Origin: a virus
Taxonomy: Duplodnaviria > Caudoviricetes
Virus record (IMG/VR): IMGVR_UViG_3300033066_001528
Coordinates: 32,001-96,000 of that record
Direction: 5' to 3' (one strand)
Length of the DNA stretch: 64,000 bases
Under the pieces are notes generated by a model. That model searched no databases, was not told the DNA's origin, and saw nothing but the letters and a program-made list of their open reading frames with translations. Numbering within the stretch: the first letter of the stretch is position 1; every line of letters begins with the position of its first letter. This document shows, piece by piece, positions 4,450 to 47,070 of the stretch. The translations under genes and the position numbers were made by a program.

Positions 4450-5196
4450 TCAGATGGAGAATTTAGAGCCCCTAAGAACCCTACAATCGGGAAGAATACC
4501 TAGGGGATTGGGGGTACAATGCTTCTCCCACCACCCCCCCAATTTATTTGATACGACCCTAAAGAACTGACGGTCTTCAGAAAAAACCGAAGGTAGGGCT
4601 TCATGGGGTGTCCGGTCGGTCATCCAGTACAACTTGGAAGGCTCCATTTTCGAGGCTACCCCAAGGGGCTCTTTTTTCAAAGCCCCGAGTGCATCAACGT
4701 CCGTAGTGGTTGAGTCCCACACCCGGCAAGCGCCATTGGTGGAGGCCATGTAAACCCCGTCTTTACGATCGCAATGTCCATCCTGAAGAATACCTTGAAG
4801 GTACTCCAATCGTTGTCTCTGATCATAGGTCAGATCTTCCTTGCTGACCCGACGTAGTTCTGCGAGCTCCTCCAGAATGGATGTCCCACCACCAAACCTA
4901 CCAATGGATCCACCACCAAAGGTAAAACCACTCCCAAACGCGGACCAAAAAGATCCATTCCCGGCTTCGGTATGTACCCCACCCCTCCGCTGCGTTGTCC
5001 CCCCCTGAACCCGACCCTCTGTCACAGTAAGGTAAGCTACCTTTCCTGGGAGAATTGAATCACACATGGCAATGAGAGGAAGATACCCGTGTAGGTCTTC
5101 AGGAATTGTCGCCGGGTCGCCCATGATAAAAGGCATCATGTTGACGGACATAGCACGGGGTTTAGGGAACTGAACAAAATGAAGGGGTTGGTACAT
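4450..5196 (-). CDS. 2OG-Fe(II) oxygenase-like (DSBH) protein; untagged paralog of 18989..19726
   Basis: RRGGVHTE (HxE), RTPHEA (distal His), RQFFR; extensive identity with 18989..19726. Confidence 0.6.
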   Translation of the reverse strand: MYQPLHFVQFPKPRAMSVNMMPFIMGDPATIPEDLHGYLPLIAMCDSILPGKVAYLTVTEGRVQGGTTQRRGGVHTEAGNGSFWSAFGSGFTFGGGSIGRFGGGTSILEELAELRRVSKEDLTYDQRQRLEYLQGILQDGHCDRKDGVYMASTNGACRVWDSTTTDVDALGALKKEPLGVASKMEPSKLYWMTDRTPHEALPSVFSEDRQFFRVVSNKLGGWWEKHCTPNPLGILPDCRVLRGSKFSI

Positions 5197-5233
5197 ACCC
5201 CACTTACGAAAAGAGTTGGACAGAAGGGGAGAG

Positions 5234-6709
5234 TTACTGGGAAAGTTTCATTTTTTCAGCATAAAAAGAAATCACCTTTTCTGCCGTTGAAACATCTGAA
5301 CCGAAAAAGTTCAACCAATGGTCTCGAACCACGGTCAAAAGAGGTACGTGCGTCATCTTGGACCGCTTAATGAATTCCCGAATATGAGCTTGAACTTCAA
5401 GGGGATCCAGAGCATAGTCATTGACGGGGTCTCTTCCTTGAGGCAAAGAGGCGTTTTGCTTTGAGAATTGCACGCTATGAGTCAGCTCGTGGGCCAACAG
5501 TGATGCCAATTCTGCCTGTCCTTCGGATCTCTTGGGGGACAACCACACTTCCACACTCAAATCCCCATAATAGTTGTTACCATCATGATTTTTCCCGGTA
5601 CCTGGATTGTCGGAGTGTCGTGTGAGGACTGATAGGTCCGTAGTTCCGGTTGATTCTAACGAATCCAGAATCCATTGGTCTAAGTTAATGTGAATATGAT
5701 TGTATCTATCCTCCAACACATGAGAACCATCCCTCCATTTCAAACTGGCATCCCGTTTCTGCAGCTTGTAAACGGAGTTACACACAAGACTAGACAGTGC
5801 ATTAGCCAGCTTTGCTACATTGACTTTGGTCCCAAAAGAAGCTGATTTGTCGGATTTGTCATTAGCAGCTTCTAAAACCTTCTGCATGTCTTCATCGGAC
5901 AAACCCTCTGCCATGACATCGTGGATTGCTTGATAGACGTAGGTCAGTAGGATCTCCTGAAGCTCATCTTCGGAAGGACCATCCTCCCCAAATACATACC
6001 GCATCGCTACTCGCTCGGACGCCGGGCGTGCCGAGGCTAGGTGATCGGAGAAATGATGGAGACCGTGAAGAAAAGAGTGACCCACTTCAAAGTGAGTGAA
6101 CCCCTTATCCAGAATATGACTGACAGCTTTGAAGGCCACATGCTTGGCGAAAGAATTACCCAGAGTTCCGGCCATGGCCCCCAAGCCGCCTGTGGCCGCC
6201 ATCACAGTGCCAGCCACAACATAAACTCCAACTGCATAGAGAGCTTTTTTATCCGGTCCCGTCAGCTTCTCCGGTGGCTTCTTAAACACTTTCTTTACAG
6301 CCGATACGCCGTGTTTTATCTCATGAAGCTCTTCTTTGGTAGCGTTCTTCAAAAGAGTGGGGATAGCTTTGGTACCCTTCTTCATTAGCTGAACGGCTTT
6401 ATCTGTAGCCTCTTTGCGGTGATCCTTATCCACTATCAACCGCTGGACTTCTTTTGGAGCTTGTTTGAGGGCTTCCTTCGCTGCTGGGGCTAGGCTCTTG
6501 GCCTTCTCCAAAAATGACGATAGCATCCCTTTGAAGCCTTTGCTTCCACCATCATCTTTCGTGGGTTCGTCTTTTTTGGGCTTGGCATGGGCATCGGCTT
6601 GATCCTTTGTATCAAAGGATTTCGCCTCTCCAGCGGGACTTTGGGATCTCCATTTACCCTCGGGGGTCTTCCAGACCTCTCCGGGGTGTCTTTCTCGCGC
6701 TATCTTCAT
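5234..6709 (-). CDS. Multidomain protein with a C-terminal zincin (HExxH) domain; probably virion-associated
   Basis: LAHELTHSVQ...EVQA; internal RVAMRY motif; hydrophobic central segment; TGATG overlap with the upstream gene. Confidence 0.65.
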   Translation of the reverse strand: MKIARERHPGEVWKTPEGKWRSQSPAGEAKSFDTKDQADAHAKPKKDEPTKDDGGSKGFKGMLSSFLEKAKSLAPAAKEALKQAPKEVQRLIVDKDHRKEATDKAVQLMKKGTKAIPTLLKNATKEELHEIKHGVSAVKKVFKKPPEKLTGPDKKALYAVGVYVVAGTVMAATGGLGAMAGTLGNSFAKHVAFKAVSHILDKGFTHFEVGHSFLHGLHHFSDHLASARPASERVAMRYVFGEDGPSEDELQEILLTYVYQAIHDVMAEGLSDEDMQKVLEAANDKSDKSASFGTKVNVAKLANALSSLVCNSVYKLQKRDASLKWRDGSHVLEDRYNHIHINLDQWILDSLESTGTTDLSVLTRHSDNPGTGKNHDGNNYYGDLSVEVWLSPKRSEGQAELASLLAHELTHSVQFSKQNASLPQGRDPVNDYALDPLEVQAHIREFIKRSKMTHVPLLTVVRDHWLNFFGSDVSTAEKVISFYAEKMKLSQ

Positions 6710-7191
6710 CAAACACACTCCGGAATAGGAAGAGAACCAGCTACACCCATCTCTATGTCCAAGAGGGCAAAAAAATCATCTATGTCCTCATTGTCAAAAA
6801 ACACACAGTCCAGAAGGAATAAATCATAAGGAAGATGCAAAACACCCATACGAGTGGAAACTTGAACGATGGAATGGAAAATATCTGTAACCTCACCCCA
6901 CCCTAGTGACAGAGACCAGAAAGGAATCCCTAAAGAGGCTCGGATTCTCCGGTGCTGGTTGGGGTGCAAGTATCTGTGTTTTTGTTGACGGTGAAAAACA
7001 CCACTATGACGAACCCGACGGTATCGGCTTTTTGCCCGTCGTTTAATCTGGTTCCGGTGTCTCAGGTAGTTCAACCTAGAGCGCCTGCGAGCCATACCAT
7101 GCTGGATGTGTTGTCTTGCATTTATTTGCAGTGCCATACGTCTTAGCCTGGATATAGGACCGGAAGGGTTGTGATTGCCGTACACCGACAC
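6709..7191 (-). CDS. Arg-rich basic protein
   Basis: RRRSRLNYLRHRNQIKRRAKSRYRRVR segment, shared with 35903..37573; start uncertain (7191 or 7137). Confidence 0.6.
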   Translation of the reverse strand: MSVYGNHNPSGPISRLRRMALQINARQHIQHGMARRRSRLNYLRHRNQIKRRAKSRYRRVRHSGVFHRQQKHRYLHPNQHRRIRASLGIPFWSLSLGWGEVTDIFHSIVQVSTRMGVLHLPYDLFLLDCVFFDNEDIDDFFALLDIEMGVAGSLPIPECV

Positions 7192-7425
7192 GAAGCTATC
7201 CTGTATGGTTGCCCAAGATGTGGGAAACAGAAGGGATACATTTTAAGCACCAATACGGGAAGTGCGGTGTTCCAGTGCTCCCACTGCACTAAGTTATTCC
7301 TAATCGTTGATGATAGTCTATCCAGGTCCCTTATCCCGGTGGAAGAGAATGGGAGTTTCCATTACCCAGAGGTAGAGCCCCATCCTCTAGGATGTCATGC
7401 GAACGGGGGGGTCAGCGATTTTTGA
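7171..7425 (+). CDS. Small Zn-ribbon protein
   Basis: CPRC...CSHC pairs; fills the gap between two minus-strand genes. Confidence 0.5.
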   Translation: MIAVHRHEAILYGCPRCGKQKGYILSTNTGSAVFQCSHCTKLFLIVDDSLSRSLIPVEENGSFHYPEVEPHPLGCHANGGVSDF

Positions 7426-7894
7426 GATAACCGAGAAGAACCCTATTTTCTGAGGTGTCGTCCAAAAAAGATACGGACATCGTGAGCAGATAGGTACAAT
7501 ATGCGTCCCCCATCTCAAAATCCGCAACGGTCACTTCGGGATTCGATATCGCGGTAGAAGTAGGTGTGAATTTAGGAAGAAGGCTTTTTATGGATCGGAG
7601 GATTAACCTACTTCGGTTAGGTGGTAACCAATTTGGATTCGTTGTTGGGTCCGGGGTATCTTCCGGATAATAGAGAATTACGGAAACAACTCCCCCATCT
7701 CCTTTGCCGACAACAGTGACATCCCCGACAAGAACACCCCTTAAACCTCCAGATCTAATAATAGAACCCAGTCGCTCACGGGAAAAAGCAGACTCCAACC
7801 ATTGGACTTTCCGGCTTTTCGTATCCGGTGGCTTACGGTCAAAAAACCAAGCATGTCTAATCATATAACGTTCTGCTACTTTGCGAGATGGCAT
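7412..7894 (-). CDS. Hypothetical protein with an N-terminal RKVAERY motif
   Basis: Likely start MPSRKVAERYMIRHA at 7894. Confidence 0.6.
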   Translation of the reverse strand: MPSRKVAERYMIRHAWFFDRKPPDTKSRKVQWLESAFSRERLGSIIRSGGLRGVLVGDVTVVGKGDGGVVSVILYYPEDTPDPTTNPNWLPPNRSRLILRSIKSLLPKFTPTSTAISNPEVTVADFEMGDAYCTYLLTMSVSFLDDTSENRVLLGYLKNR

Positions 7895-7933
7895 TATGAA
7901 AGGAGAGTGGATAGAAACAAACAAATGAATACC

Positions 7934-8725
7934 TTAGCCAGTCTCCAAGACGGCCTGTAATTCAGGGTGTCTGTAAATCGCTGAACCGACAAAACAAACG
8001 AGGTTAGAGACCGGACGGTAAACGCGCTCACTGTGTGTGTGCCCGCACAGAACCATAAACTGAACATTAGGATATTCCCGAGCCAAACAAAGAAGCTCTT
8101 GCCCCAACCTCAAGTTGCAATAAAAAGGAAGGTACGAACTGGGGGTAGGAGAAGAGAAATGGAAACAGGATTGAGGGAACGGTGGGAAATGTGTTGCAAC
8201 CACAATCATCTTGGCTCGGGAAGCCACATCTTTGACTCTTTTCGATATCAAATGGGTGTGGTGATCCGCCCTTCGTTGATAGAGGGCCAGCCTATCAGAC
8301 GAGTTCATTGAATTAAGTCCTGGTATCTCCCCCAATTCCGCCATACGAATCCTAGACCCGGAATAATCCCCGGCCCTCCCATCGTACCAGCCATCCACCC
8401 CAAGCAAGTAAGATCCATCCCCAAAGTGAATGGGTTCCGAATTTGTCAAATAGGTAAGGTCCAACGAGTGATAGTCGGCCATCACCTTATCCGTGGCCTC
8501 AAAAGTCAGATGCCAGTAATCATGATTCCCGAGAACAAAATCAATGGGAATCCTAATCCTATTCTGAAGGCGGCCAAGGTCGGATAAAACTCGACGAGAG
8601 GTGGAGTTATCTCCAGTTAACAGGAGACGATCTACCTTTGCATTTTGAATGGATTGAACAAACCGAAAAAAAGAATCTTCGGATACACAATCCAAATGAA
8701 TATCGGTTGCCCAAGCTAATCGCAT
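7934..8725 (-). CDS. Calcineurin-like metallophosphoesterase (Icc/CpdA-like)
   Basis: DIH, TGD, GNHD, THFPP and GHTH motifs in canonical order. Confidence 0.9.
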   Translation of the reverse strand: MRLAWATDIHLDCVSEDSFFRFVQSIQNAKVDRLLLTGDNSTSRRVLSDLGRLQNRIRIPIDFVLGNHDYWHLTFEATDKVMADYHSLDLTYLTNSEPIHFGDGSYLLGVDGWYDGRAGDYSGSRIRMAELGEIPGLNSMNSSDRLALYQRRADHHTHLISKRVKDVASRAKMIVVATHFPPFPQSCFHFSSPTPSSYLPFYCNLRLGQELLCLAREYPNVQFMVLCGHTHSERVYRPVSNLVCFVGSAIYRHPELQAVLETG

Positions 8726-8730
8726 TGGAA

Positions 8731-9525
8731 TTATAGGCAGGCGCCAACGGATCGAGTGTAGGCTAAAGAAAGGTCCCGGTCCAAACGATCCTGATATTTC
8801 TCCCCGTAGAGGGGGTTATCAACGGCAACACGCACCCTACTCTCTACGTCTGTTGAAAAAGGATCTAGGGGACCATGATAATGGATCTCTAGAATTGTAG
8901 ACCCGCTATCCGGACCAAGACCCCCCGCCACACCAAGACCGAACCCATGCTCCCTGGCCATGGGCTCCAGGTGATGAAGGATTTCATACCATAAACCCGG
9001 ACTAGAAGGCTTGCCATTCCCACCGGAAAAGTCAATTAGAGCATAGTCCATAAGGCCGGTGTAGGAACGAAGGTACTGGGCCACATTCTCCGGAGTTCGT
9101 TTTGAACCAATTGAAGACCCATTCACCTGAAGGATGATTTTCACATTCGGGAACATATCCCTCACCAAACGAATACTAGAGGGATCCGGCTTAACCACAT
9201 TCAACTGGATGCCACCACTAAACCCCTTAAAAACCCCCAAAAGATCGCGGAGTTGGATCATAAGGGATCGGTCATCACCTCCCGTATTGTAGTGGATGGC
9301 GGGAAAGACCCCCCCAATCAGCGAAAGGGATTCGATCAACCGAACGGCCGTTCCAACTTTAGGGTAGCGACGGTTAGTGACGGGTACATGCTTGAGTGTT
9401 TTTCCACTCACCAAAACACCAGCCATCACCAAGTGAGAGGCCGGAGCAATAGCTCTGCACTCCCGGATAGTATCCACATCATCAGGGGTAACAACACCCG
9501 TGATACCTAAGTAGGGAAGAGTCAC
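8731..9525 (-). CDS. TIM-barrel protein, phosphoribosylanthranilate-isomerase (TrpF)-like
   Basis: GITG start, IQLN, LIDFSGGNG, VAGGLGP, DVESRVR phosphate-binding region. Confidence 0.65.
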   Translation of the reverse strand: MTLPYLGITGVVTPDDVDTIRECRAIAPASHLVMAGVLVSGKTLKHVPVTNRRYPKVGTAVRLIESLSLIGGVFPAIHYNTGGDDRSLMIQLRDLLGVFKGFSGGIQLNVVKPDPSSIRLVRDMFPNVKIILQVNGSSIGSKRTPENVAQYLRSYTGLMDYALIDFSGGNGKPSSPGLWYEILHHLEPMAREHGFGLGVAGGLGPDSGSTILEIHYHGPLDPFSTDVESRVRVAVDNPLYGEKYQDRLDRDLSLAYTRSVGACL

Positions 9526-9953
9526 ATCAAAGACCTTTCTCTGGTTTTACCACCCGAGGTGCAATCCAATCTCTCAAACACAAGGGGCCTATCCGTCACG
9601 TTCCACCCGTTCCCCACGAAGTAGTCTCGGATCTCAGACTCTGTAGCGGAGTCAGGAACCCCACCTTTGAATGCAGTTTTCGGATAATGGACCCACCTAT
9701 CACCTTCGCGGACAAAGGACACCGTGATAAGGGGCACATGCTTTATCACGAAAGCAGTCATGTCGCGGAACGCAAGGAAAGACCAATTATCACGAAGAGC
9801 CAGCTCCAAAGCTTCCACGGAAGTGGTGATACCCCGGGTGTTGGGAATAGAAATCTTCCCCCGGGCCGTTTGAACGAACCAGGACGGTGCATAATCAAAC
9901 TCAGGGGTAAGCTCCATTACAAGAGAACCAACGGCGGGTGCTGTATTCATCAC
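9522..9953 (-). CDS. Hypothetical protein
   Basis: 143-aa ORF with 4-nt overlaps to both neighbours. Confidence 0.6.
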   Translation of the reverse strand: MMNTAPAVGSLVMELTPEFDYAPSWFVQTARGKISIPNTRGITTSVEALELALRDNWSFLAFRDMTAFVIKHVPLITVSFVREGDRWVHYPKTAFKGGVPDSATESEIRDYFVGNGWNVTDRPLVFERLDCTSGGKTRERSLM

Positions 9954-11269
9954 GTCACCTTACGACGCTGAATGTTAGAGTAGCACACAGGAACCGCAAG
10001 ATTGATTTTGTCCGTGGAACGAGCCCCAAAAGAAGCAATACCTACCTTGGACCCAAGCATCGCACTCACCTTATCTACCACGGAATACGGATCCAGGAAA
10101 TCACCCGAAGCGATCATTGTTTCGATCTCAGGACGAGCCGTTCGGAGCAAAGCGGTATTGGAATCCTGATAAAGCATATCGTCTGCCGGAGTGGGAGACG
10201 CAACTAGACCGGGAAAATCCGGCCTATATGCATCAACATACTTCCAGGTATTTTTCACCGCATCTAGATGGGATAGTGCAATAGAATCAACCCCACCAAT
10301 AGCCTCCAGTGAGTACCGGAAGAGAACTGCATCAAAATGACCCTGACGAAACGGACCCTGCCAACCGGCCGGGCTGTTATGGTATTCGGGATTATTCAAC
10401 GAAGCCTCTGTCGGAAACGGACCCTCTCCGTGACGAGTCATGTATGTCCGAAGACAACCAATGACGTGCGTATTCCCCGAAAAGTCAACTTCATTTAGAA
10501 GTCGCATGGCATTTCTTGGTGTTGTGTCAGACCAAGTGGTATGAGGGTGAAACCCATGCCACTTATCCAGCAGAACCCCCTGTGCCCCCTCGAAAATAAG
10601 AGGCTTTCCAGAAGCCACCAGATTTTTCATATAGGAAGTTTCATCAACAGTGTGGAGATTCCGAAGAAAACCAGCCATCCTGTCTTTGTAAGCTTCGGGG
10701 TCGAACCGCACGGACTCAAACCCCATCTCCACGGCAAAAGCATTGGCAAGGTCCATCTGCAAACGGAGTTTACGGGACAATGTATCCGGTGTATGAAGAT
10801 CCACCACACGGATCGTGGCTTCAGGATTGGTGTAGGACATGGAGACGGACTCCCCAAAACCCATACCACAAGTACCATGACGATCTTCGCCGCGAGCCAG
10901 TTCGCGAGTTCGATTCATTGCTTGGTGGAGAGGGGTGATAACCAGGGCCCCCATCGAAACGTCCAAAAGAGAGAAAGGATCACGAACCCCCTTGGAGGAA
11001 AGGACTTCAGACTCTCGAATCATGGCTGTAGGGTGAATAGCCATGTATCGACTGAGGAAAGTTCGGCAACCATGAAAAGTTGCCGAACCCCACTGGGCAA
11101 AAGTGTGATGCCGACCATCACCAGAAATGACGTTGTGCCCAGCCTGGGCACCACCGTTGTGACGAATGACAGTAGACCCCGGGTTGACGGAGGCAAGGAA
11201 GTCAACCGTCCCCCCCTTACCCTCATCACCAAACGCCAGACCCGTAACGATGTATGCTGTTTGGTTCAT
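9950..11269 (-). CDS. Adenylosuccinate synthetase-like protein (divergent PurA paralog)
   Basis: GDEGKG, GGAQAGH, HGTCGMG, FEGAQGVLLD and TYMTRHGEGPFPTE present; the TTGRxR aspartate-binding loop is absent. Confidence 0.85.
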   Translation of the reverse strand: MNQTAYIVTGLAFGDEGKGGTVDFLASVNPGSTVIRHNGGAQAGHNVISGDGRHHTFAQWGSATFHGCRTFLSRYMAIHPTAMIRESEVLSSKGVRDPFSLLDVSMGALVITPLHQAMNRTRELARGEDRHGTCGMGFGESVSMSYTNPEATIRVVDLHTPDTLSRKLRLQMDLANAFAVEMGFESVRFDPEAYKDRMAGFLRNLHTVDETSYMKNLVASGKPLIFEGAQGVLLDKWHGFHPHTTWSDTTPRNAMRLLNEVDFSGNTHVIGCLRTYMTRHGEGPFPTEASLNNPEYHNSPAGWQGPFRQGHFDAVLFRYSLEAIGGVDSIALSHLDAVKNTWKYVDAYRPDFPGLVASPTPADDMLYQDSNTALLRTARPEIETMIASGDFLDPYSVVDKVSAMLGSKVGIASFGARSTDKINLAVPVCYSNIQRRKVT

Positions 11270-11304
11270 GGCCTCTCTTACGCGGAGGCCATGATAGTTG
11301 ATTT

Positions 11305-12243
11305 CTAAAAATTCTCTCGAAAATCGGGTGGGGGAGTACCGGACTTCCCAATACTATTTGCGTACGGAGTCAAAGACCGAACAATTGGCCCCAAGAGGTC
11401 CGATGGCACACCATTGGCCTTGAGGCTGTCCGCATAGGCAATGAGATCCGATACCTTTCCTTCGGTGAGAGCCACCAACCCTGCCGACACATATGAGGTA
11501 ATCCCATCGGCATAGAGTTGGATAACCCTATCCCCCAGAAGCTCACGCCAACGGGCAACTACTTTCTGATGACCATGGTTGTAGGGGATTAGGAAAAAAG
11601 TATGATACTTCTCCCCCAATTCTTGGAAGATATGACCCGTAGGGATATCCTTGTTGATTTTCGAGGACATCCAAGTTCGAACAAGATTGGCCTGAACAAA
11701 TGGAAAAGGATTGTCATCTCCAGTGAAAATGGCATAACCTTTTCTGCCCCGCCGAACAAAGTTGTCCGTCTCCGTGTGGCGGGATAGGAAATAGGCTGCA
11801 AGGTCGTAGCTTTCTCCACCATTACCACCACCCCCACCCTCCAGAAAGCACCACGTCAGCCACTGATCCATGCCGGATGCGGTGGACTCGAACTGACCAA
11901 CTTGAAGAGGGGCCTTTTCGTATCCAGTAATAGCGTCACCTACGGCCATAAAAAGAACCTGTGGGTCCGGTACCCCCACGTTCATTAAAACTTGCATGAA
12001 TTGGGGAAGCTCTTTTTTGGCAAGATCCTTAGGTATATCCCCCATGGATCCTGTCTCATCCAAAACAAAAGCAATGGGCAGTGAATTCGGATGATCCTCC
12101 GAATCCCTAGATTCACGGAGATTCACATTCCGGGGATCCATAAGCGAATGCAGGGAATGGTGGAAAACAGTCTCCACCGGAATAGCCGCGCGAGTAGAGA
12201 CAATCGCGGCATGGTCTTCCATACTATATCCACCGTAACCCAT
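11305..12243 (-). CDS. vWA-domain protein with an MGYGGYS N-terminus
   Basis: LDETGSM MIDAS, VGD, GGGGNGGESY, TGD; AAGGAG SD upstream of ATG 12243. Confidence 0.8.
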   Translation of the reverse strand: MGYGGYSMEDHAAIVSTRAAIPVETVFHHSLHSLMDPRNVNLRESRDSEDHPNSLPIAFVLDETGSMGDIPKDLAKKELPQFMQVLMNVGVPDPQVLFMAVGDAITGYEKAPLQVGQFESTASGMDQWLTWCFLEGGGGGNGGESYDLAAYFLSRHTETDNFVRRGRKGYAIFTGDDNPFPFVQANLVRTWMSSKINKDIPTGHIFQELGEKYHTFFLIPYNHGHQKVVARWRELLGDRVIQLYADGITSYVSAGLVALTEGKVSDLIAYADSLKANGVPSDLLGPIVRSLTPYANSIGKSGTPPPDFRENF

Positions 12244-12400
12244 ATCACGTCTCCTTCTTATCGTTTGAGGGAACGGAGTCATTGCACCCGTCCCCATATG
12301 AAATCTCACCGGGTGTGTTCACCACCCTGGTGATAGGTGTGTATTCCTGTACCCCATCGTCATCAGTGTCTTTTGAAGTATACAAACTCTGTCCCATGAT

Positions 12401-12616
12401 TCAAACCTCAACTTTCCAAGTAGTGAACACTACGTCTCCAGACGTACGAACAACGGGTTTCCCGAAGGTCCCAGGAACTGTTACGTGGGGCCATAGAGTA
12501 GTGACCACTTCCATTGGATCTATATCCGAGACATCCCCGAGACCCTCAAGGGATAGGAAAGTGGACACACCCACACGTGACCAAATGCCACCCAGAATTC
12601 TCTCTTTACTTGTCAT
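12401..12616 (-). CDS. Hypothetical small protein
   Basis: 71 aa; ATGA overlap with the kinase-like gene. Confidence 0.5.
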   Translation of the reverse strand: MTSKERILGGIWSRVGVSTFLSLEGLGDVSDIDPMEVVTTLWPHVTVPGTFGKPVVRTSGDVVFTTWKVEV

Positions 12617-13437
12617 TTACCACCCATAGTGAAGTTGTGGTATCTGTTACCCCCATAAAGGTTTTTAGCTAAGGTATCTACTTGGACCAAGAGATCCCAG
12701 GCGTCTTCCGACCATTTTCCTTGGGCGACATTGGTTATCAATGTCTCCAAACCCTTAGAAACGCCAGCAGGAAGCCCCTTCTCATCCCCACCCAGAACCC
12801 GATAGACACATCGGGCCGACATGATGATGTCCGTTGAAGGAGTGATCGAACCCCCATCCCACACGTCTTTGGGGTAGTAGAACTCATATCCGGGACTTCG
12901 AGCAACGAGTCTGCTACCAATTTTCGCAGTCCTAGACCATCCTGCCAATACAAGCCCGTGATCCCTAGGGTGAATCAGTAGATGCTGAGGGGTACACGAG
13001 GAATGAACATACCCCGCAAGATGAAGCCACCCCAAGAAGGAAAGAGCTCGCTTCCACATCCACAGAGCCGTCCTTTCATCTACTCCGCGGGGATACTCTC
13101 GAAATACATCCTCGAATGTGTACTGAAATCCAGTACGCCAAAGATATTTGTTTGCAAAGGTTGTTTCCGATTTCCGCTGAATTTTCACCGTGGTTAAAAA
13201 TGGAGGCAAAAAAGAACTGAAATAATCGGATCCTTTAACGGAAGAATTAGCAAGCTCACATACAACGGAAGCCTCACGCCTCAAAAGATCCACCGATTTG
13301 GTCTCCGTACCCCGGGGGATTTTCAGAACCACCATTTCCTTAGGCTCCTCCCGTTGAGTATAGAAAACGTCACAAAACTCCCCGTCCCCAACCTGACCTA
13401 GAATGGTATAAGAGTCACCATTGATTTGAACTCTCAT
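12613..13437 (-). CDS. Ser/Thr kinase-fold protein, probably degenerate
   Basis: GDGEFCDVF Gly-loop, VVLK, E of helix C; catalytic loop HSSCTPQHLL lacks Asp and the DFG position reads AGW; start 13437 from ATGA overlap. Confidence 0.7.
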   Translation of the reverse strand: MRVQINGDSYTILGQVGDGEFCDVFYTQREEPKEMVVLKIPRGTETKSVDLLRREASVVCELANSSVKGSDYFSSFLPPFLTTVKIQRKSETTFANKYLWRTGFQYTFEDVFREYPRGVDERTALWMWKRALSFLGWLHLAGYVHSSCTPQHLLIHPRDHGLVLAGWSRTAKIGSRLVARSPGYEFYYPKDVWDGGSITPSTDIIMSARCVYRVLGGDEKGLPAGVSKGLETLITNVAQGKWSEDAWDLLVQVDTLAKNLYGGNRYHNFTMGGK

Positions 13438-13811
13438 TGGGATATCCTTTCGAAAAAGTACAAAAGACCCATAGCCATCTCGATTGCTTGATCTTTTGTA
13501 CAAGACAATTTATCCTGAATCCACTGCTGAAGATGATGGAGTTTTGGGATCCCACCACCAGTAGAAAGGGTCATACTGATTCGTGGGCCCAAAGGCCCCG
13601 AACCAGCCTTAACGACCCCGGACACCTCCAGCCAAGTGATGAGGTATGTATGGGGTCCAAGACCATAGAGGCTAGCCGACAGCCAATCCATCGGAGCTAT
13701 ATGTAGGGTAAACCGAGGCCCTGCACTCCGTGTTTGCACCGTTCCGGAACACCCGTACAAAACTACAAGGAAGGTATCCGTGATAAAATGCTGGGATTCC
13801 ATACTGACCAT
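13434..13811 (-). CDS. Hypothetical protein
   Basis: Coupled to its neighbours by TAATG and ATGA overlaps. Confidence 0.55.
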   Translation of the reverse strand: MVSMESQHFITDTFLVVLYGCSGTVQTRSAGPRFTLHIAPMDWLSASLYGLGPHTYLITWLEVSGVVKAGSGPLGPRISMTLSTGGGIPKLHHLQQWIQDKLSCTKDQAIEMAMGLLYFFERISQ

Positions 13812-15547
13812 TACCCGCAAGTAACGATCAGGGTTTTGGCCTTCACATCATATTCGTGACCCAAGTACCTTGTGCGATGGCCCTGACGGAAAGCTACCTC
13901 GTGAGGCCACAAGTATTGAGGTACGGAACACATCTTGTCTCCAATTTTAACCTTCACTTTTACGGGGAAGTCAATTTGAGTGTCACTACCCTTGGGAAAC
14001 ATACCCACAATGCTCTCCACCCCCCAAGCCCGAAGAATGGATTGTGGTAGCATTTCCCGAATCCCCTCAAACCACCTATCTCTTAAGTAACCCCGGAGTT
14101 TGGTCCCATTAGCATCGATCAAGTACCCACAAAGAGACTGAGAAGTGAGAAATTCTCTGTCCTCCATGATAGGGGAAAGAAGCTCCCGAACTTCAGGGTT
14201 CCCACTTACAACAATCCGTACATTCTCCCACTCTGGAAGCATAAGAAAATGCATCCGATGGGTGGACAAATCAGAGTAGGGGGTGGGAAGAATATCAATT
14301 GAGTCCGGAGGGTAGCCAACGTCACTCAGGGCTACCCGAAGCATTTCGGCAACTACCCATTTGGGAAGAGGATCCTGGTCAGTCCAGGTATAGGATTTTT
14401 GAAGGGTGATAACGGGACGAAAACCCAGCTCAAGCACCCTAGCAATGAGGTTGATATGTCCCTTATGTGGAACCCCGCATCGCATTGGGAGTAGTGCTTT
14501 AGGTCTGCACGAAGTGGTGCGTGAAATGTAGAACTTCGTAGTAGAGAAATGACGAACCACGTCATCTGCAGTCGGGCGATCCGCGGGGTCTTTGGCCATC
14601 ATCCTACGGAGCAGACTAACCATAGTGGGGGGGATGCCCACCTTTGCCTCATACGGATCAGCTATGTGAGCAACAGCATGTTCCCTGGCGGCACCAAAAA
14701 ATTTGGTATTCTTGCCCACAAACGGGTGATCCCCAGTGAAAAGTTGGTGTGCCAGAACCCCCAGAGCCCAGATATCACTAGCTGGAGAAGCCTCTCGCCT
14801 GGAAAACGTCTCAGGAGCGGCATAGACGGGATCCACCAGATAGGTTCCAATCGTTGACCCTAGTCCGCATCTACGTGAATGACTGAAGTCAAACAGAGCC
14901 CCACTGGTAAGGACGTTGGATTTCGATAGATCCATGTACAAAACCCCAGCCTCGTGAAGGAAGCGAAGGTTTTCTGCCACTTTACGAACAATCTCTTCGG
15001 CAAACCGAGAGGAGGGGATAATATCGGAGAGGGTTTCCCCACGTTCAAATAGCCGAAGGATAACTTTACCTGAAAGGAGCTTATAGGGCCTGTGAAGACA
15101 ATCTAAAATACTATCCTCTCGATCAGCCCTATCCCCCAAGGGTCCCGAAGACTCGTCCCATAGCTCTTTTGCAATATGCACCCCACCATTAGTGTCACAC
15201 ACCGATGCCACTAAACGATCGGCCTTTGGGGAAGACAAAAGGGATAGGAAAGTTAGCCCATTTTGAGTTAGGCATTTGCGGAAAGACTCAATACCCATGG
15301 ACTTAGGTGCTGGGGCCCTCTTCCAGGGAGGAATATCCAGAATCATATCCGGGGGGCAAAGTCGATTGAAATCGACCAGAGCCTTTTCGTCCCGAAGAAC
15401 AGCCAGAACACTTCGAATATCCCTTAAGGATTTAGGGTCATGAAGTGCGACCACAATCGCTTCCTGGAATCGAAAAGGCTCGCTCTCAACCGTGGAGAGA
15501 AGGAAAGGGACGATGTAATCGGGGGGCATCGGGGGTATTACCCCCAT
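13811..15547 (-). CDS. Ser/Thr protein kinase fused to a HIGH-family nucleotidyltransferase (NMNAT-like)
   Basis: IAK, YMDLSKSNV, DFS, YAAPE, SDIWALG, DPADRP; then PHKGH (HxGH), VVSGNPEV, NGTKLR. Confidence 0.8.
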   Translation of the reverse strand: MGVIPPMPPDYIVPFLLSTVESEPFRFQEAIVVALHDPKSLRDIRSVLAVLRDEKALVDFNRLCPPDMILDIPPWKRAPAPKSMGIESFRKCLTQNGLTFLSLLSSPKADRLVASVCDTNGGVHIAKELWDESSGPLGDRADREDSILDCLHRPYKLLSGKVILRLFERGETLSDIIPSSRFAEEIVRKVAENLRFLHEAGVLYMDLSKSNVLTSGALFDFSHSRRCGLGSTIGTYLVDPVYAAPETFSRREASPASDIWALGVLAHQLFTGDHPFVGKNTKFFGAAREHAVAHIADPYEAKVGIPPTMVSLLRRMMAKDPADRPTADDVVRHFSTTKFYISRTTSCRPKALLPMRCGVPHKGHINLIARVLELGFRPVITLQKSYTWTDQDPLPKWVVAEMLRVALSDVGYPPDSIDILPTPYSDLSTHRMHFLMLPEWENVRIVVSGNPEVRELLSPIMEDREFLTSQSLCGYLIDANGTKLRGYLRDRWFEGIREMLPQSILRAWGVESIVGMFPKGSDTQIDFPVKVKVKIGDKMCSVPQYLWPHEVAFRQGHRTRYLGHEYDVKAKTLIVTCG

Positions 15548-15557
15548 TTGGATGAAT

Positions 15558-16628
15558 TTAGCTTAGGAGATCGGAGAGCATACCCTGAATTTCTTCCTCA
15601 GTCATGACTCCGGGAAGGTAGAGCTCGGCAAAAGCTCGAATCCTAATCTTCGCCATATCATCCGTTCGCACACCGAAGATAGGAGAAGAAAGCCATTTTG
15701 CATACAGGGCCGCCAGAAACATTTGGATGGACTGCTTCCCGGCATTACGGGCCATACAGAAGAGAACAGCGTTGGCCACGATGCCGTTCCGATGTGTGGC
15801 CTCTTTAATTGAAGAGAGATCAATGAAGTTACGAGCAACCTCAACGGAATCGAAAACACCAGGAGATGTCTCGAAAAACTGCTTCTGCAGGGGCACCATT
15901 TTTGGATCCGAACCGGATCCAATAAGGATGAACTTCCCATAGGTTCTGCGAATAGCCTCCATGGATCTCCGCCATGAAACCTGATCCGGACATCCATCAT
16001 CACTCTGAAGGCCCATCCCGTGACCCACCACATCGGTCACGAGAATAACCGTGCGATCCTGGACAGGAATTTCGCCAAAATCGATCTCGCTTGCTCGAAG
16101 GAGAGCACACTCTACGGCCTCTGCCTCATCATCACCGGAAGCGCCTCGGATCTTGAGAAAGCTATTGTAGAGCTGCTTATCCCCCTTCTCATTGGCAGAA
16201 GCGAAGTCCGCATATTGAAACAAAAGGTCCCCGTCGCAATGGTCACTGAAGTAAATGAAGGCCACCTCTGCACGGGCATCCACGGATTGAGCAAATGCAG
16301 TGAAATGACCGGAAGACTTCAGGAAATGCTCCGCAATAGCCCGGTTGCTACCGGAATTATCAACCAGAACCACCACGGCTCTTTTTGCCTCCTTAGAGGG
16401 AGAGGTAATGGTGTTCTTGGCTTGTGTGGAGTCGTACAACTCACGAGTGTCCCTTTCCGGAACGGAGGACTTTGACACACGGCCGTGAAGGATATCCTCC
16501 CTGGCCTTCGCCCGACCGGCACGATACTCCGCATAGGCTCGTGTTCTTGTTTCATAGTTACTGTCGGTAATATCCGACAGACTCTCAAGAGCACGAGAAG
16601 ACCCACCGAAACTGTTTCCAGATCCCAT
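15558..16628 (-). CDS. vWA-like protein with an MGSG N-terminus
   Basis: VDNSGSN, FSDH, GDDEAEA, VTD; start placed at 16628 because the longer ORF crosses a terminator hairpin. Confidence 0.7.
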   Translation of the reverse strand: MGSGNSFGGSSRALESLSDITDSNYETRTRAYAEYRAGRAKAREDILHGRVSKSSVPERDTRELYDSTQAKNTITSPSKEAKRAVVVLVDNSGSNRAIAEHFLKSSGHFTAFAQSVDARAEVAFIYFSDHCDGDLLFQYADFASANEKGDKQLYNSFLKIRGASGDDEAEAVECALLRASEIDFGEIPVQDRTVILVTDVVGHGMGLQSDDGCPDQVSWRRSMEAIRRTYGKFILIGSGSDPKMVPLQKQFFETSPGVFDSVEVARNFIDLSSIKEATHRNGIVANAVLFCMARNAGKQSIQMFLAALYAKWLSSPIFGVRTDDMAKIRIRAFAELYLPGVMTEEEIQGMLSDLLS

Positions 16629-16654
16629 TTTATTGAACTTTCTGAGGTTAGTAG

Positions 16655-16704
16655 AAAAGCAGGAAAGGGTGGATAACCCACAACTCGGGTTATCCACCCT
16701 TTCC
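16655..16704 (-). terminator. Intrinsic terminator after 16706..17929
   Basis: Perfect 18-bp stem ggaaagggtggataaccc/gggttatccaccctttcc followed by TGCTTTTC on the minus strand. Confidence 0.75.
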
Positions 16705-16705
16705 G

Positions 16706-17929
16706 TCAACGGCGAGCTTTTACCTCACCGGGGAAAGAACCGAAGGGTTCTTCCCGACGAACAGGGCTAACACGATCCGGTGTACCCGTGCGAAGGGCGA
16801 CAATAGACTGCGACCCCAGGAGGTAGAGGTGCTGTGCCATGGTAGCCAGGGTAGCATCCGGCACATTAGGAATGTCAAGAGCGTTGAGGACGAACTCACC
16901 GAGAGAGATGCTAGCGCGAGCTTCTGCCTCGGAAAGAGTCACCCCCAGCCCACGCTTCATCTCGTCCAGAGTCTTGAAACCAGCCGCATCCATGTATGTC
17001 GGGTCACGGAGGAGATCCACGAGGTCTACAGCATCCTTGGCCATGATACGAACGGAAGCGAGATAGTTAAGACCACGGAAAGTCTTGTTCACCGCGTCAG
17101 CAAATTCTGCCGCCGCCGAGCGAAGGGACGCAACTTCCACGGTATCGGGAACAAAACCACTGAGACGATTGGTGAGAGCGTCAATCAGATGGCTAGGGTC
17201 AGCCTTCTGGAGACGGACCTGATCGTACCAAGTAGCGAGGGCGTCGTAGAAACGAAGAACCCCTGGAACAAAAATGGTATCCAAACGGGCGAGGAGACGC
17301 TTACGGTCAGCCGCACCAACGGACTTCGCCGGAACCTTCATGGCACGGAACAGAGGAGCAAAGTCCTCCGCTTGAACGTCATCCATGAGCTTGTAAACCC
17401 GCTCGGCATCGGCCGGAACGTCAAGAGCCTCAGCCGCATCCCCGATCTTCTCCAGAAGTTTCGACCGGAGGGTGTAAAGGTTAGCCTTATTGGCAAAACT
17501 AACCCGAAGTGCAGCTACTGCATCAAGGTGCGTGACCTGACCATTAAGGGTACCACCAGAGATAAGGCCCGAAAGGAACGAAGCGTCATCCCCCAACCGC
17601 TTCAGAACACTTGTGGCCGGAACAACCGCCGGAACAACCGTCGAAACCGAAGGTGTAGACGGGACGATGGACTCACGAAGAGCTTTCACCGCGGCACGAA
17701 GAACCGGGGGCTTCGCCGTAGGAAAGGTCGCCACGGGGAACATACTTGACCAGTCGGCATCGGTTACCGTGGTAGAATCCCCGAGAATGGAAAGGGATGC
17801 GTCACTTCGATCATTGACTGACGAAGCAAGGACAATTTCGTCTACCTTTGCCAGATCAACACCGATCGCCGCAGCGAAGGTAGCCAGAACAGTCGAGAAC
17901 CGAGAGGTCGAAACAGTTGTATCACTCAT
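16706..17929 (-). CDS. Hypothetical helical protein
   Basis: 407-aa ORF with its own CGTAACTG upstream motif and a terminator. Confidence 0.75.
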   Translation of the reverse strand: MSDTTVSTSRFSTVLATFAAAIGVDLAKVDEIVLASSVNDRSDASLSILGDSTTVTDADWSSMFPVATFPTAKPPVLRAAVKALRESIVPSTPSVSTVVPAVVPATSVLKRLGDDASFLSGLISGGTLNGQVTHLDAVAALRVSFANKANLYTLRSKLLEKIGDAAEALDVPADAERVYKLMDDVQAEDFAPLFRAMKVPAKSVGAADRKRLLARLDTIFVPGVLRFYDALATWYDQVRLQKADPSHLIDALTNRLSGFVPDTVEVASLRSAAAEFADAVNKTFRGLNYLASVRIMAKDAVDLVDLLRDPTYMDAAGFKTLDEMKRGLGVTLSEAEARASISLGEFVLNALDIPNVPDATLATMAQHLYLLGSQSIVALRTGTPDRVSPVRREEPFGSFPGEVKARR

Positions 17930-18013
17930 ACAGTTTTCCTTAGTAAATGTTGGGTGGGGCCACTAACCCCGTGCAACCACAGTTACGACTAACCCAGAAA
18001 ACTGGAGAGGAAA

Positions 18014-18403
18014 TCAGGGGTATGAATTAGCGTTCTCAGACGGCATCAAATTCACAAAGTATCGGTGTGAGGCCACCGACCGACGTTCTGCTTCTTTCTT
18101 AAGGTCATCCAAGGCCACCCCCAGAAGCTGGTCCAATACCATAGCGTCCCCAAGAAGTCTGGCCCTAACGGTTTTTTCTGGTACTCCAGTAGCAAAACTA
18201 ATGCGACGCACGGACCCCTCAAGTGATCGGGTGAGGAGGCCACGGTAGGAATCCAGCCCCTTCTCCCACTGGCCCACGGAACGATAAAAAGGTTCTGCCG
18301 GGTTCATTCGTCCAGTATGAGCGGCTAGGATGGGGAGAAGATGCTTTCTTGTTTCCGGCTTATCATGGGCCAGACGTACAAGCTTTGAGTAAAGGCCCGG
18401 CAT
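18014..18403 (-). CDS. Leader-tagged small protein
   Basis: MPGLYSKLVRLAHDKPETRKHLLPILAAHTG. Confidence 0.75.
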   Translation of the reverse strand: MPGLYSKLVRLAHDKPETRKHLLPILAAHTGRMNPAEPFYRSVGQWEKGLDSYRGLLTRSLEGSVRRISFATGVPEKTVRARLLGDAMVLDQLLGVALDDLKKEAERRSVASHRYFVNLMPSENANSYP

Positions 18404-18407
18404 AGGG

Positions 18408-18956
18408 TTAGTCACCTATCCCAAAAGAGGAATCTTCCCAAATCCAGACGTTCGGCCCCCGAACACGCCACCCGGAACCCCTATAGCTGGTAGATCCAGG
18501 AACCCCACCCCCAGTAATCTGGAACAACTTTGGCATGACCAGAGCAATCGCCTCGGCAAAATTCGGGTCAACCTCGGACTTAACGACGTACCCACTGTTA
18601 TCAGACCAAGCTTCCTGTGTAGACCACATACCCATTTGTGCAAGGGCACCTTCTTGGAAGGTTTTAGAAGCTAAGTTTAGCCGTACCAAGCGAACGAATT
18701 CCTTTAAGGTACGGTACATACCACGAACACCATCCTTCATGTAGTCCGGAACGATGTTCGGATTCACCTGATCATTTTTCGCAGTAACAACTATCTCCCC
18801 ATTTGTGTATGTGAAAGTTAAGAGGAGGGTAGCCCGATTGATTCCGTTCCCAATCTGCATGGGAACCGCAGCTTCCTTAAGTATTGGTAGAAGATGCGGT
18901 CTGAGGGAAGGATTTTGATGGGCTAGGCGGATAACTTTGGATCTAAGGGTCGTCAT
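18408..18956 (-). CDS. Leader-tagged protein
   Basis: MTTLRSKVIRLAHQNPSLRPHLLPILKEAA. Confidence 0.8.
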   Translation of the reverse strand: MTTLRSKVIRLAHQNPSLRPHLLPILKEAAVPMQIGNGINRATLLLTFTYTNGEIVVTAKNDQVNPNIVPDYMKDGVRGMYRTLKEFVRLVRLNLASKTFQEGALAQMGMWSTQEAWSDNSGYVVKSEVDPNFAEAIALVMPKLFQITGGGVPGSTSYRGSGWRVRGPNVWIWEDSSFGIGD

Positions 18957-18988
18957 ACCATAAAAGAAGGAAACAACAAATTAACGAG

Positions 18989-19726
18989 TTAGAATTTTGA
19001 TCCTTCAATGATTGGGCAGTCCGGTAACACACCAAAAGGATTGGGGGTGTTGTGTTGCTTGAACCACCCACCAATCTTATTGGAAACCAACCTGAAAAAT
19101 TGACGGCGAGTGTCCTTAGACACTCGCAGGGCCTCATGAGGGGTTCGGTCGGTCATCCAATACAAGTAGTTGGGTCTCATCTTCTCACTCAACCCCGAAG
19201 GGGAAGTCATTAATGCTCCGTGCTTGTCTACTTTACCAGCAGAGCAGTCCCATATTCTACAAGATCCATCCGTTGAAGCCATGTAGATACCATCCCGAAT
19301 CGCACAACCCTCTTTTTGACCTTTACCCCAACCCCCGCCCCATCCTGAATGCAGAGAACCCTTCCCCCAGCCCCCACCCCATCCACCCTGCTTTGTGGAA
19401 TCGTAACTTTCCGTATGTATACCGCCACGTCTCTGAGAGTCTCCGGATTTAACTAAGCTCTCATGAACGGTAAGGTAAGCCACCTTACCTCTCTCAATCG
19501 AGGAACACTTATCAATCATCGGAAGGTAACCATGCAAATAACCAGGAATTGTTGCTGGGTCACCCATGATGAAAGGCATCATATTGATAGACCTACCTTG
19601 AAATTCGGGAAACTGAACTGATCCAATCCGTCGGTAATGTTGCGTTTCCAATAAAGGAAGAAGATCCTTTCGCAAGGAAGGATTTTGATGGGCCAGACGA
19701 ATAAGTTTGGATCTAAGGCTTTTCAT
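18989..19726 (-). CDS. Leader-tagged 2OG-Fe(II) oxygenase-like protein
   Basis: MKSLRSKLIRLAHQNPSLRKDLLPLL followed by a domain paralogous to 4450..5196 (GGIHTE, TPHEA, RQFFR). Confidence 0.75.
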   Translation of the reverse strand: MKSLRSKLIRLAHQNPSLRKDLLPLLETQHYRRIGSVQFPEFQGRSINMMPFIMGDPATIPGYLHGYLPMIDKCSSIERGKVAYLTVHESLVKSGDSQRRGGIHTESYDSTKQGGWGGGWGKGSLHSGWGGGWGKGQKEGCAIRDGIYMASTDGSCRIWDCSAGKVDKHGALMTSPSGLSEKMRPNYLYWMTDRTPHEALRVSKDTRRQFFRLVSNKIGGWFKQHNTPNPFGVLPDCPIIEGSKF

Positions 19727-19750
19727 ACCTGGAAAGCCACTAGAAAAAGT

Positions 19751-26724: not shown

Positions 26725-26728
26725 GGGT

Positions 26729-45273: not shown

Positions 45274-46155
45274 TCAGCGAGTGACGGTGAGGCGAACGAG
45301 ACCCTTGGGGTTGTAGGCCCCAATACCGAGGTTCTCGAACATTGAGAAACCGATGGTGCGAGCCTTTGGATCGTCGGCACTCAGGACGGTCAGTTCGGTA
45401 CGAACGGGGATACGGCCAAACATCTCCGGTTCGCAACACACGTACACCGTTCCTGCGGGAACGAGACGCGAGGTGATAACCTGGGCTCCCCAGAGGGTAG
45501 CCTGAAGTCCGGTCTTGAGGAGAACAGCCTGCGATTCAATGTCGAGAATGTCCCGACCGAACTTACGGATGTCCGCGTAATCCCGTGCGTTCATAAAGAC
45601 GCGCGCAACCCGGAGGTCATGCCGCTCAATGAGTGCCCAAGCGTCAGCGAGAACTGCACCGTTAAGCGGAGCTACAACGGGGAGGTCTGGGTTGGTTCCA
45701 CCAGGAACGCTATCAAATCCGTTAACGGCGATAGCGTCAAGGACACCGAAGACACGTATATCTTCAGCGGCCTGAATGGAAGCCCGACCCAAATCTTGAG
45801 CGCGCTCGATCAAATCGAATCGACGCTCACGGATCTGGGTTAGTGGGATCTCTGGGTTCGAGGCAAGCTCAAACAGAGGGAAGATCACACGTCGTGGCTT
45901 GGTGATGGCGAGGATGTTCTCCCCTTCCTCACCGACCACGTATGCGGTTACATCCGGATCCTTGTCGTAGATTGGCAGAGCCCCATCGGGGAGCTGTTCA
46001 ACCAGGAAGGTCTTTCGACCAACGGACATATAGTCCCGACGAAGACGGAGTGGCTGAGTCATAGAAGCTGCCAGCTTCTGACGACCGGCTGCTGTCCGGA
46101 TGAAGTCACCAATCAAGGCTTGCTTGTTGGCGTTCTCAACATTAGGGTTAGTCAT
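45274..46155 (-). CDS. Major capsid protein (HK97 fold)
   Basis: Follows protease, scaffold and decoration genes; ED..VF, VFMN..Y.DIRK, LWGAQVITSR..P.G.VY, ENLGIG..NP.G pattern. Confidence 0.85.
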   Translation of the reverse strand: MTNPNVENANKQALIGDFIRTAAGRQKLAASMTQPLRLRRDYMSVGRKTFLVEQLPDGALPIYDKDPDVTAYVVGEEGENILAITKPRRVIFPLFELASNPEIPLTQIRERRFDLIERAQDLGRASIQAAEDIRVFGVLDAIAVNGFDSVPGGTNPDLPVVAPLNGAVLADAWALIERHDLRVARVFMNARDYADIRKFGRDILDIESQAVLLKTGLQATLWGAQVITSRLVPAGTVYVCCEPEMFGRIPVRTELTVLSADDPKARTIGFSMFENLGIGAYNPKGLVRLTVTR

Positions 46156-46198
46156 TGTAGTGTTCCTTGGTCCTTTTTGTGTACCTGTACGAGTCCTA

Positions 46199-46873: not shown

Positions 46874-46991
46874 AATTTCTGTCCTAACCTTGTGCTCCCT
46901 GTTTTCAGGGTTAGCGTGTTTGTTCCCATCCTAATGCACCATTGCCAGGAGGGGGTTCAGCCGATAGGTGTGTGCTATTGGAACTCAAACG

Positions 46992-47035
46992 GAAAAAAGC
47001 TGAAGGGGGATGATATTTTCTATCATCCCCCTTCA
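46992..47035 (-). terminator. Intrinsic terminator after the scaffold gene
   Basis: 15-bp perfect stem tgaagggggatgata/tatcatcccccttca followed by GCTTTTTT. Confidence 0.8.
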
Positions 47036-47042
47036 CGTCCAA

Positions 47043-47063
47043 TTAGAGGATTGAATCCTCTAA
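47043..47063. promoter_or_regulatory. Perfect 10-1-10 palindrome
   Basis: ttagaggatt-g-aatcctctaa. Confidence 0.4.
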
Positions 47064-47070
47064 GCTAAAA

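Follow-up and report, generated by a model that had tools for sequence, protein, structure and literature searches.

Introduction

Fe(II)- and 2-oxoglutarate (2OG)-dependent oxygenases of the PhyH/TauD type combine an H-x-[ED]...H motif with an arginine that lies about 11 residues past the distal histidine, on the next strand. In phage T4, a capsid targeting sequence (CTS), which is conserved, takes a variety of proteins into the scaffolding core (PMC3012670), and the phage packages its ADP-ribosyltransferase Alt and injects it, while its two other ADP-ribosyltransferases, ModA and ModB, are made early and act in the cytoplasm (PMC2988021). Here we describe a pair of viral genes in which an oxygenase-like enzyme and a putative targeting peptide may have been brought together. 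The stretch of DNA that was analysed (hereafter the window; 64,000 nucleotides) comprises bases 32001-96000 of a 123,912-bp contig of a virus of the class Caudoviricetes (IMG/VR record IMGVR_UViG_3300033066_001528). On its minus strand lie two related open reading frames (ORFs), P0001 (4450..5196; 248 aa) and P0002 (18989..19726; 245 aa), both of which are predicted to have an oxygenase-like double-stranded beta-helix (DSBH) core, and only P0002 is headed by a short basic leader that recurs at the N-terminus of other ORFs in the contig. Our analysis shows that the two copies diverged long ago and that the leader was gained secondarily by one of them, and it suggests that the leader may serve to carry this copy in the virion.

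Results

An earlier note on this DNA had proposed that the two ORFs are paralogs and that the leader heads the second one only. Both proposals hold: every shared motif that it quoted is present in both ORFs at the coordinates given above, the two proteins share 107 identities over 249 positions (43%, E 2e-58 by BLASTP), and the translations place the leader in front of 18989-19726 and not of its paralog. In a six-frame scan of the contig the leader turned up on 13 ORFs, of which the window contains 11, and in each case at the N-terminus. It is basic and 27-29 residues long, with the consensus MxSLRSKLIRLAHxNPxLRxHLLPLLK, in which L11, A12, R19, L23, P24 and L26 are invariant among the aligned leaders; just 6 of the 13 have an L-x-E-like ending, and a literature search for the motif returned nothing relevant. 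The leader of P0002 (residues 1-29; 19640..19726, minus strand) begins M-K-S-LRSKLIRLAHQNPSLRKDLLPLL and is modelled as a helix-Pro-helix unit with helices at residues 4-14 and 16-27. Together with the next gene downstream, which lies 33 nt from P0002 and likewise bears the leader (18408..18956, minus strand; 182 aa, no known family), and a third leader-bearing gene (18014..18415, minus strand; 133 aa, no known family), P0002 forms a tandem array of leader genes.

In the public database the tagged copy is called as P0003 (197 aa) from Met49, which drops the leader as well as the conserved N-terminal strand. This start is too short, because residues 31-48 are conserved across the family (F39 in 283, P40 in 293 and N48 in 295 of 305 members) and form a confident strand in the model; with P0003, automatic annotation hides the fusion of leader and enzyme. 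No stop codon interrupts the frame from the core back to the upstream ATG, which stands in the GGT-ATG context seen in other leader genes, and since no stop separates the two parts, the leader, if it is translated, must be fused to the enzyme. The P0002 leader has kept all of the invariant and near-invariant leader positions except the lysine that most other leaders carry after LLPLL. We also considered an assembly chimera at the junction between leader and core. This was ruled out by a 415-bp contig that another study had obtained from wastewater (2017) and that spans 19342-19756 including the junction with 0 differences; the same stretch is also present in the riverine metagenomes of a third study.

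Within the family, the leader is peculiar to P0002. None of the other 304 of the 305 inspected members carries it, and no leader was found near family genes within 10 kb at 16 viral and 68 metagenomic loci or within 6 kb at 3 genomic loci. The homologs start with M-Y exactly where P0002 has H30-Y31, so the leader was joined on at the former start codon. On the other side, 28 IMG/VR records of leader-using phages, one of them 485 kb long and 92% complete, contain no member of the enzyme family, while the same search finds both copies in their own genome. Because these records lack the enzyme and the other 304 members lack the leader, the enzyme is a sporadic acquisition among leader-using phages, and the tag on it is derived. 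The proposal that the leader is a modular, secondary gain is thus borne out, and the converse, a leader ancestral to the family, was looked for among the 305 members and is not what they show, with P0002 its only carrier.

The DNA of the leader points to a possible source. Among the 12 other leaders, the closest relative of the P0002 leader is that of the adjacent 182-aa gene, with 75% identity over 81 nt and 39 of 43 nt identical in the core. The two use the identical codon at 12 of 20 identical residues, as against 2-10 for the other leaders, a value that ties for the highest among all 78 leader pairs. Local copying or recombination from the adjacent gene is thereby suggested as the probable route, an argument that is statistically not compelling alone. 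A stretch in a related contig (L151), located upstream of an ortholog of P0001 and reading in frame ...RLIRLGRNPV..., was judged to be a chance resemblance of the 5' region, not a leader.

The enzyme part was modelled with AlphaFold2 from alignments of 79-81 rows, and the models reached a mean predicted local distance difference test (pLDDT) score of 87.9 for P0002 and 89.1 for P0001. The earlier note had proposed a DSBH enzyme of the 2OG-Fe(II) type, to be checked by Foldseek; the first matches in the PDB were all 2OG oxygenases, namely FtmOx1, KanJ, AusE, OkaE and ColD (E ~1e-3, probability 0.9-0.97). A VIA structure search, which does not depend on Foldseek, returned for the P0002 model, among the 50 matches listed, almost only Fe(II)/2OG oxygenases, the rest being cupins. 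The best scores were those of EvdO2 (Z 9.0, 160 aligned residues, root-mean-square deviation (rmsd) 4.2), KanJ (8.4), ThoJ (8.3), human PhyH (7.9) and prolyl hydroxylases (~7.5). The P0001 model gave the same picture (EvdO2 Z 9.0), and the two models together align with EvdO2 over 154-160 residues at an rmsd of 4.2-4.5. Over the top matches as a whole, the aligned length was 154-176 residues. In the ESM Atlas, the nearest named clusters were PhyH (template modelling score 0.50) and JmjC or cupin families.

The predicted active site agrees with this fold. In P0002, H104-T-E106 (19409..19417, minus strand) would provide the proximal histidine and the acid of the facial triad, and H197, which opens a strand in the model, the distal histidine; R208, 11 residues further on and the predicted binder of the 2OG C5-carboxylate, and R212, at +15, both lie on the following strand (206-214). 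The segment from H197 through R208 occupies 19103..19138 on the minus strand, with R212 just beyond it. Conservation of this set among the 305 aligned members is nearly complete (H104 in 302, E/D106 in 302, H197 in 304, R208 in 304 and R212 in 303), and both paralogs keep the whole H-x-[ED]...H...R set including the equivalent of R212, the predicted metal- and 2OG-binding residues of P0001 being H75, E77, H198, R209 and R213. Fold and residue pattern thus favour the proposed enzyme type, though no sequence model recognises the family. We consider it likely, from the models, that the family consists of oxygenases, and both copies are most likely active enzymes of the hydroxylase type. The numerous invariant Arg and Lys residues of the family (R99, R100, R208, R212 and K244) hint at an anionic substrate.

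Both ORFs belong to the family described by the phrog_8970 hidden Markov model (HMM), which P0001 matches over residues 1-217 (E 2.1e-26) and P0002 over residues 31-217 (E 4.8e-34). An exhaustive HMMER search (E <0.001) yielded 1,143 clusters at 50% identity. The family occurs in the cultured jumbo phages Salicola SCTP-2, Pseudomonas Noxifer and Erwinia Caitlin, in huge-phage contigs of IMG/VR, in metagenome-assembled genomes (MAGs) of giant viruses and in Catovirus and Orpheovirus. Protist transcriptomes (Paramoeba, Ditylum and others) contain longer forms, some of them fused to UQ_con, WWE, villin-headpiece or ankyrin domains; that ubiquitin-system and WWE domains are among the fusion partners is a weak pointer to a protein as the target. 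In prokaryotes, a member was found in only three MAG contigs (one genome each of 185,579 species), and phrog_8970 is for this reason essentially a family of viruses and protists.

The paralogs differ in more than the leader. The earlier note had described distinct Gly-aromatic loops, and the difference is as described; what needs correction is the exact repeat of the tagged copy, which is the 9-mer GWGGGWGKG and not a 10-mer. In P0001 the loop is a Phe-rich variant (residues 82-104; 4885..4953, minus strand) with pLDDT below 50, and in P0002 it is a Gly/Trp loop (residues 115-136; 19319..19384, minus strand) that is disordered in the model and contains the repeat twice, at residues 115-123 and 128-136. 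The two repeat units are identical at 23 of 27 nt, and the 4 differences all fall at third codon positions. Tandem Repeats Finder listed no array for the P0002 gene, and the 9-aa repeat came from direct inspection. In addition, P0001 carries after its loop an insert of some 35-40 aa that was missing from the earlier note (approximately residues 105-140; 4777..4884, minus strand). It is modelled as a helical hairpin with helices at 107-116 and 124-138, is shared by the orthologs P0011, P0012 and P0055, and is absent from P0002.

These three orthologs are leaderless and ~70% identical to P0001, and one P0001 ortholog, in contig L151, is preceded by homologs of the same two ORFs that neighbour P0001 in the window. 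The proteins nearest to P0002 are P0004 and P0007. A careful tree of 30 rows joined P0001 and its orthologs in a clade with 100/99 support and placed P0002 with other leaderless proteins at 80/28, with poor support for the deeper nodes. An approximately unbiased (AU) test did not reject a single clade of P0001, P0011 and P0002 (p 0.76), and the tree so constrained had the higher likelihood. A quick tree of 83 rows had placed P0002 in a leaderless clade with an approximate likelihood-ratio support (SH-aLRT) of 93, from which we had taken the copies not to be sisters; this view was dropped after the AU test and the careful tree. The earlier note had spoken of a duplication. The paralogy that this implies stands, while a recent duplication within the genome is excluded by sequence comparison, P0001 being ~70% identical to leaderless orthologs and 43% identical to P0002. 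An old duplication in the lineage and two separate acquisitions appear equally possible, because P0001 is closer to its leaderless orthologs, the position of P0002 in the tree is weak and the AU test does not reject sisterhood.

The synteny with L151 has a peculiarity of its own. There, positions 122-1591 form one ORF of 490 aa that covers homologs of the window ORFs 6709-7191 (58% identity) and 5234-6718 (75%, residues 1-294 only), and it stops before the HExxH part, directly upstream of the P0001 ortholog. In the window, 6709-7191 and 5234-6718 (minus strand) are two ORFs with a 10-nt overlap, so that the two contigs could differ by a fusion or split or by a frameshift. The ORF 5234-6718 is also one of at least five (with 19751-21121, 22029-24107, 24975-26270 and 26684-27460) that contain an H-E-L-x-H motif, in the forms AHELTHS, RHELQHM, VHELAHW, THELGHR and IHELGHA. 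The contig may thus encode zincin-like metallopeptidase domains in a multigene set, and one of these ORFs has a weak Pfam match to DUF6782, a putative metallopeptidase.

The genes given as lying between the two paralogs, all on the minus strand, include a homolog of adenylosuccinate synthetase (9950-11269; E 1e-62), a protein with a Ser/Thr protein kinase domain (13811-15547; E 6e-26), a calcineurin-like phosphoesterase (7934-8725) and a vWA protein (1955-4381, which by its coordinates lies just outside the pair). None of them recurs beside family members elsewhere, and in Noxifer and SCTP-2 the neighbourhoods of the family gene have only hypothetical proteins annotated.

Leader genes are scattered through structural and non-structural regions of the contig, and several stand inside the block of portal, protease, scaffold and capsid genes. 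Within this region, a head-assembly block (45274..49955, minus strand) encodes the major head protein (45274-46155; E 3e-48), an acidic scaffold-like ORF (47071-48627) and a homolog of the head maturation protease (48504-49955; E 6e-11), which are candidate receivers or processors of the leader. The acidic ORF, situated between the protease and the major head protein, contains at least three repeats of the type DEDEALLAAMLDE. Homologs of it (L163-L175) are present in 13 of the 28 leader-using records, all with 1-4 E-x-[LM]-L-x-x-M-[LMV] motifs, and their C-terminus (LSKLWESAPDVSKIFG-like) is conserved. The basic amphipathic leader might dock at several sites of this acidic protein. A complex prediction of the leader alignment against the acidic repeat region 47413-47727 (score 0.02, mark 0.32) was counted neither way. 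Further along, the portal (56120-59407) and the large terminase (59938-63120), both on the minus strand, are unusually long at 1,095 and 1,060 aa; the match of the former to portal PHROGs is confined to about residues 835-1040, and by eye both seem to contain intein or homing-endonuclease-like inserts.

In the contig, GGT directly precedes the ATG in 9 of 120 predicted genes; of the 9 predicted genes that were scored as leader-bearing, five are in this group, as is P0001. The GGT-ATG context is thus common to both paralogs, contrary to another note on this DNA that had described their upstream motifs as different. Such sites include those upstream of 5196, 19726, 18956, 33038, 55915 and 1918, and they often follow a T-rich tract and a run of G (e.g. 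aagtggggtATG).

Discussion

The explanation that we favour is that P0001 and P0002 are long-diverged members of a family with a predicted DSBH fold and the H-x-E/D...H...R set, and that one of them secondarily gained a portable, basic helix-Pro-helix leader at its old start codon, probably copied by local recombination from the adjacent leader gene. Through the leader the tagged copy would dock to a shared receptor, the assembling head being the most plausible one, and would in this way be carried in the virion and act on entry, while the untagged copy would act only after its expression. To this explanation as a whole we assign a probability of roughly 60%. The destination of the leader is the part that is drawn by analogy, and the contrast between a virion-delivered and a cytoplasmic copy, which the earlier note had put forward, seems to us a reasonable model on the same footing.

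Several observations weigh against this explanation. At E values up to 10, Pfam matches neither of the paralogs and none of 79 family members, NCBIfam has no match for the family proteins, and single-sequence and profile searches of the PDB sequences with the family as well as a search of the genome with the PF05721 (PhyH) HMM were equally negative. Because no curated sequence model matches, the family is placed in the Fe(II)/2OG superfamily by its predicted fold and motif only, and in no described family. The Z scores of 8-9 fall in the range that the tool itself calls middling, and the weight comes from the uniformity of the match list and from the residue pattern; the geometry of the triad is likewise inferred from this pattern, not from superposition on a solved triad. 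Among the neighbours of 35 family loci, whose ORFs were compared all-against-all, none recurs, hence there is no hint of the substrate from this side. The Gly-aromatic loop and the 35-40-aa insert also differ between the copies, so that a functional difference is not attributable to the tag alone and the comparison of a virion-delivered with a cytoplasmic copy is weakened as a clean one. The contig represents ~29% of the genome, which may hold further copies. The leader is presumably unrelated to the CTS of T4, judging by length and composition.

The same observations feed alternative explanations, one of which draws on the differences between the copies. The pair may not be distinguished by the tag alone, being instead two functionally diverged enzymes with different substrates or partners, perhaps of separate horizontal entry, for which the leader is one difference among several. 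An identity of only 43%, the dissimilar loops, the clade-specific helical insert of P0001, the firm grouping of P0001 with leaderless orthologs, including a syntenic one in a relative, the weak grouping of P0002 with other leaderless proteins and the absence of the family from the 28 other leader-using records are all in keeping with it, whereas all invariant and near-invariant family residues are present in both copies and the AU test leaves room for a single clade, whose constrained tree was even the likelier one. We regard this as a serious, if somewhat unlikely, alternative. It bears on what the two enzymes do, and a further alternative bears on where the tagged one goes: the leader could be a tag that docks its protein elsewhere than at the capsid, such as on a phage hub protein, an unfoldase or protease, a membrane or an intracellular compartment, in which case the tagged copy would be relocated or regulated inside the infected cell. 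No data tie the leader to head proteins, and its genes are found in structural and non-structural regions alike. That several of them nevertheless sit within the portal-protease-scaffold-capsid block, and that the sole well-studied case in which many unrelated phage proteins bear one N-terminal tag is the CTS of T4 (PMC3012670), makes such a destination improbable in our judgement.

At the level of the enzyme, the lack of a sequence-level tie to any 2OG family, together with the facts that Z scores of 8-9 can reflect fold alone and that cupins of the YhcH/YjgK type appear among the lower-ranked structural matches, would also accommodate a non-oxygenase cupin or DSBH protein, either a binder of metal or ligand or another enzyme, in which the H...H...R residues serve a different chemistry. 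The top-ranked structural matches are all Fe(II)/2OG oxygenases, and the spacing of H-x-[ED]...H with the arginine at +11 on the next strand is the classic PhyH/TauD-type arrangement, which leaves this alternative distinctly unlikely. Least probable is that the leader is no part of the enzyme, translation starting at a TTG at Leu26 or at Met49 and the leader being a remnant or an element used separately. Such a start has the 197-aa database gene call and in-frame TTG codons at positions 18 and 26 in its favour, yet Met49 is wrong given the conserved strand at residues 31-48, the leader has kept its characteristic positions apart from the one lysine and is separated from its nearest relative mostly by synonymous changes, and its ATG has the GGT context of the other leader genes, with no stop between leader and core.

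If the favoured explanation, that of a tagged copy carried in the virion, is correct, one may go further and imagine that this copy is loaded via the leader, injected with the DNA and, within seconds of infection, hydroxylates a macromolecule of the host, its untagged paralog continuing or broadening the modification later; in this specific form we consider the scenario speculative and rather doubtful. An oxygenase delivered by the virion would be the first of its kind, and the case would demonstrate directly that the helix-Pro-helix tag of huge phages is a transferable cargo signal. Irrespective of this, the locus offers the cleanest evolutionary evidence in the genome that the leader is a portable module, with one gain, at a start codon and beside the likely donor, and it draws attention to a large family lacking any model, probably of Fe(II)/2OG oxygenases, that is common to huge phages, giant viruses and marine protists. 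The two copies may also prove useful experimentally, as paralog-specific peptides (from the Gly/Trp repeat and from the helical insert, respectively) could show in a single virion proteome whether the tag decides packaging.

Compared with what has been described, the combination of tag and enzyme is a new architecture assembled from two partly known kinds, a new family in the 2OG-oxygenase superfamily and a tag resembling those of head cargo. With the PhyH-like oxygenases (EvdO2, 4XAC; KanJ, 7CL2; human PAHX, 2A1X; EctD; FtmOx1) the family shares, according to the models, the DSBH core, an early H-x-D/E, a distal histidine on a late strand and an arginine ~11 residues later, and its structural likeness to them amounts to Z 9.0-7.9 over 154-162 aligned residues. 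It differs from them in having no detectable sequence relationship and a smaller core (~195 aa), and in features of its own, namely a conserved N-terminal NMMP motif, a disordered Gly/Trp-rich loop after H-x-E and very basic invariant residues. The members in cultured viruses (Pseudomonas phage Noxifer gp264, Salicola phage SCTP-2 gp479, Erwinia phage Caitlin and Catovirus CTV1 A0A1V0S8Z7) belong to the same family as the window pair by sequence and model. All of them are annotated as hypothetical or uncharacterized, all are without the leader and, unlike the window pair, none is recorded here as duplicated.

As regards the leader, the nearest parallel is the CTS of the T4 internal proteins IPI-III, likewise a short N-terminal peptide common to unrelated proteins of one phage (13 ORFs here), in a genome that also encodes a head maturation protease. 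The tag described here is longer, with ~27 aa in a basic helix-Pro-helix arrangement as compared with ~10 aa for the CTS. The pair as a whole most closely recalls T4 Alt and ModA/ModB, in that one phage encodes related enzymes of which one has an N-terminus that, in T4, targets the head; here the enzymes are oxygenase-like in place of ADP-ribosyltransferases.

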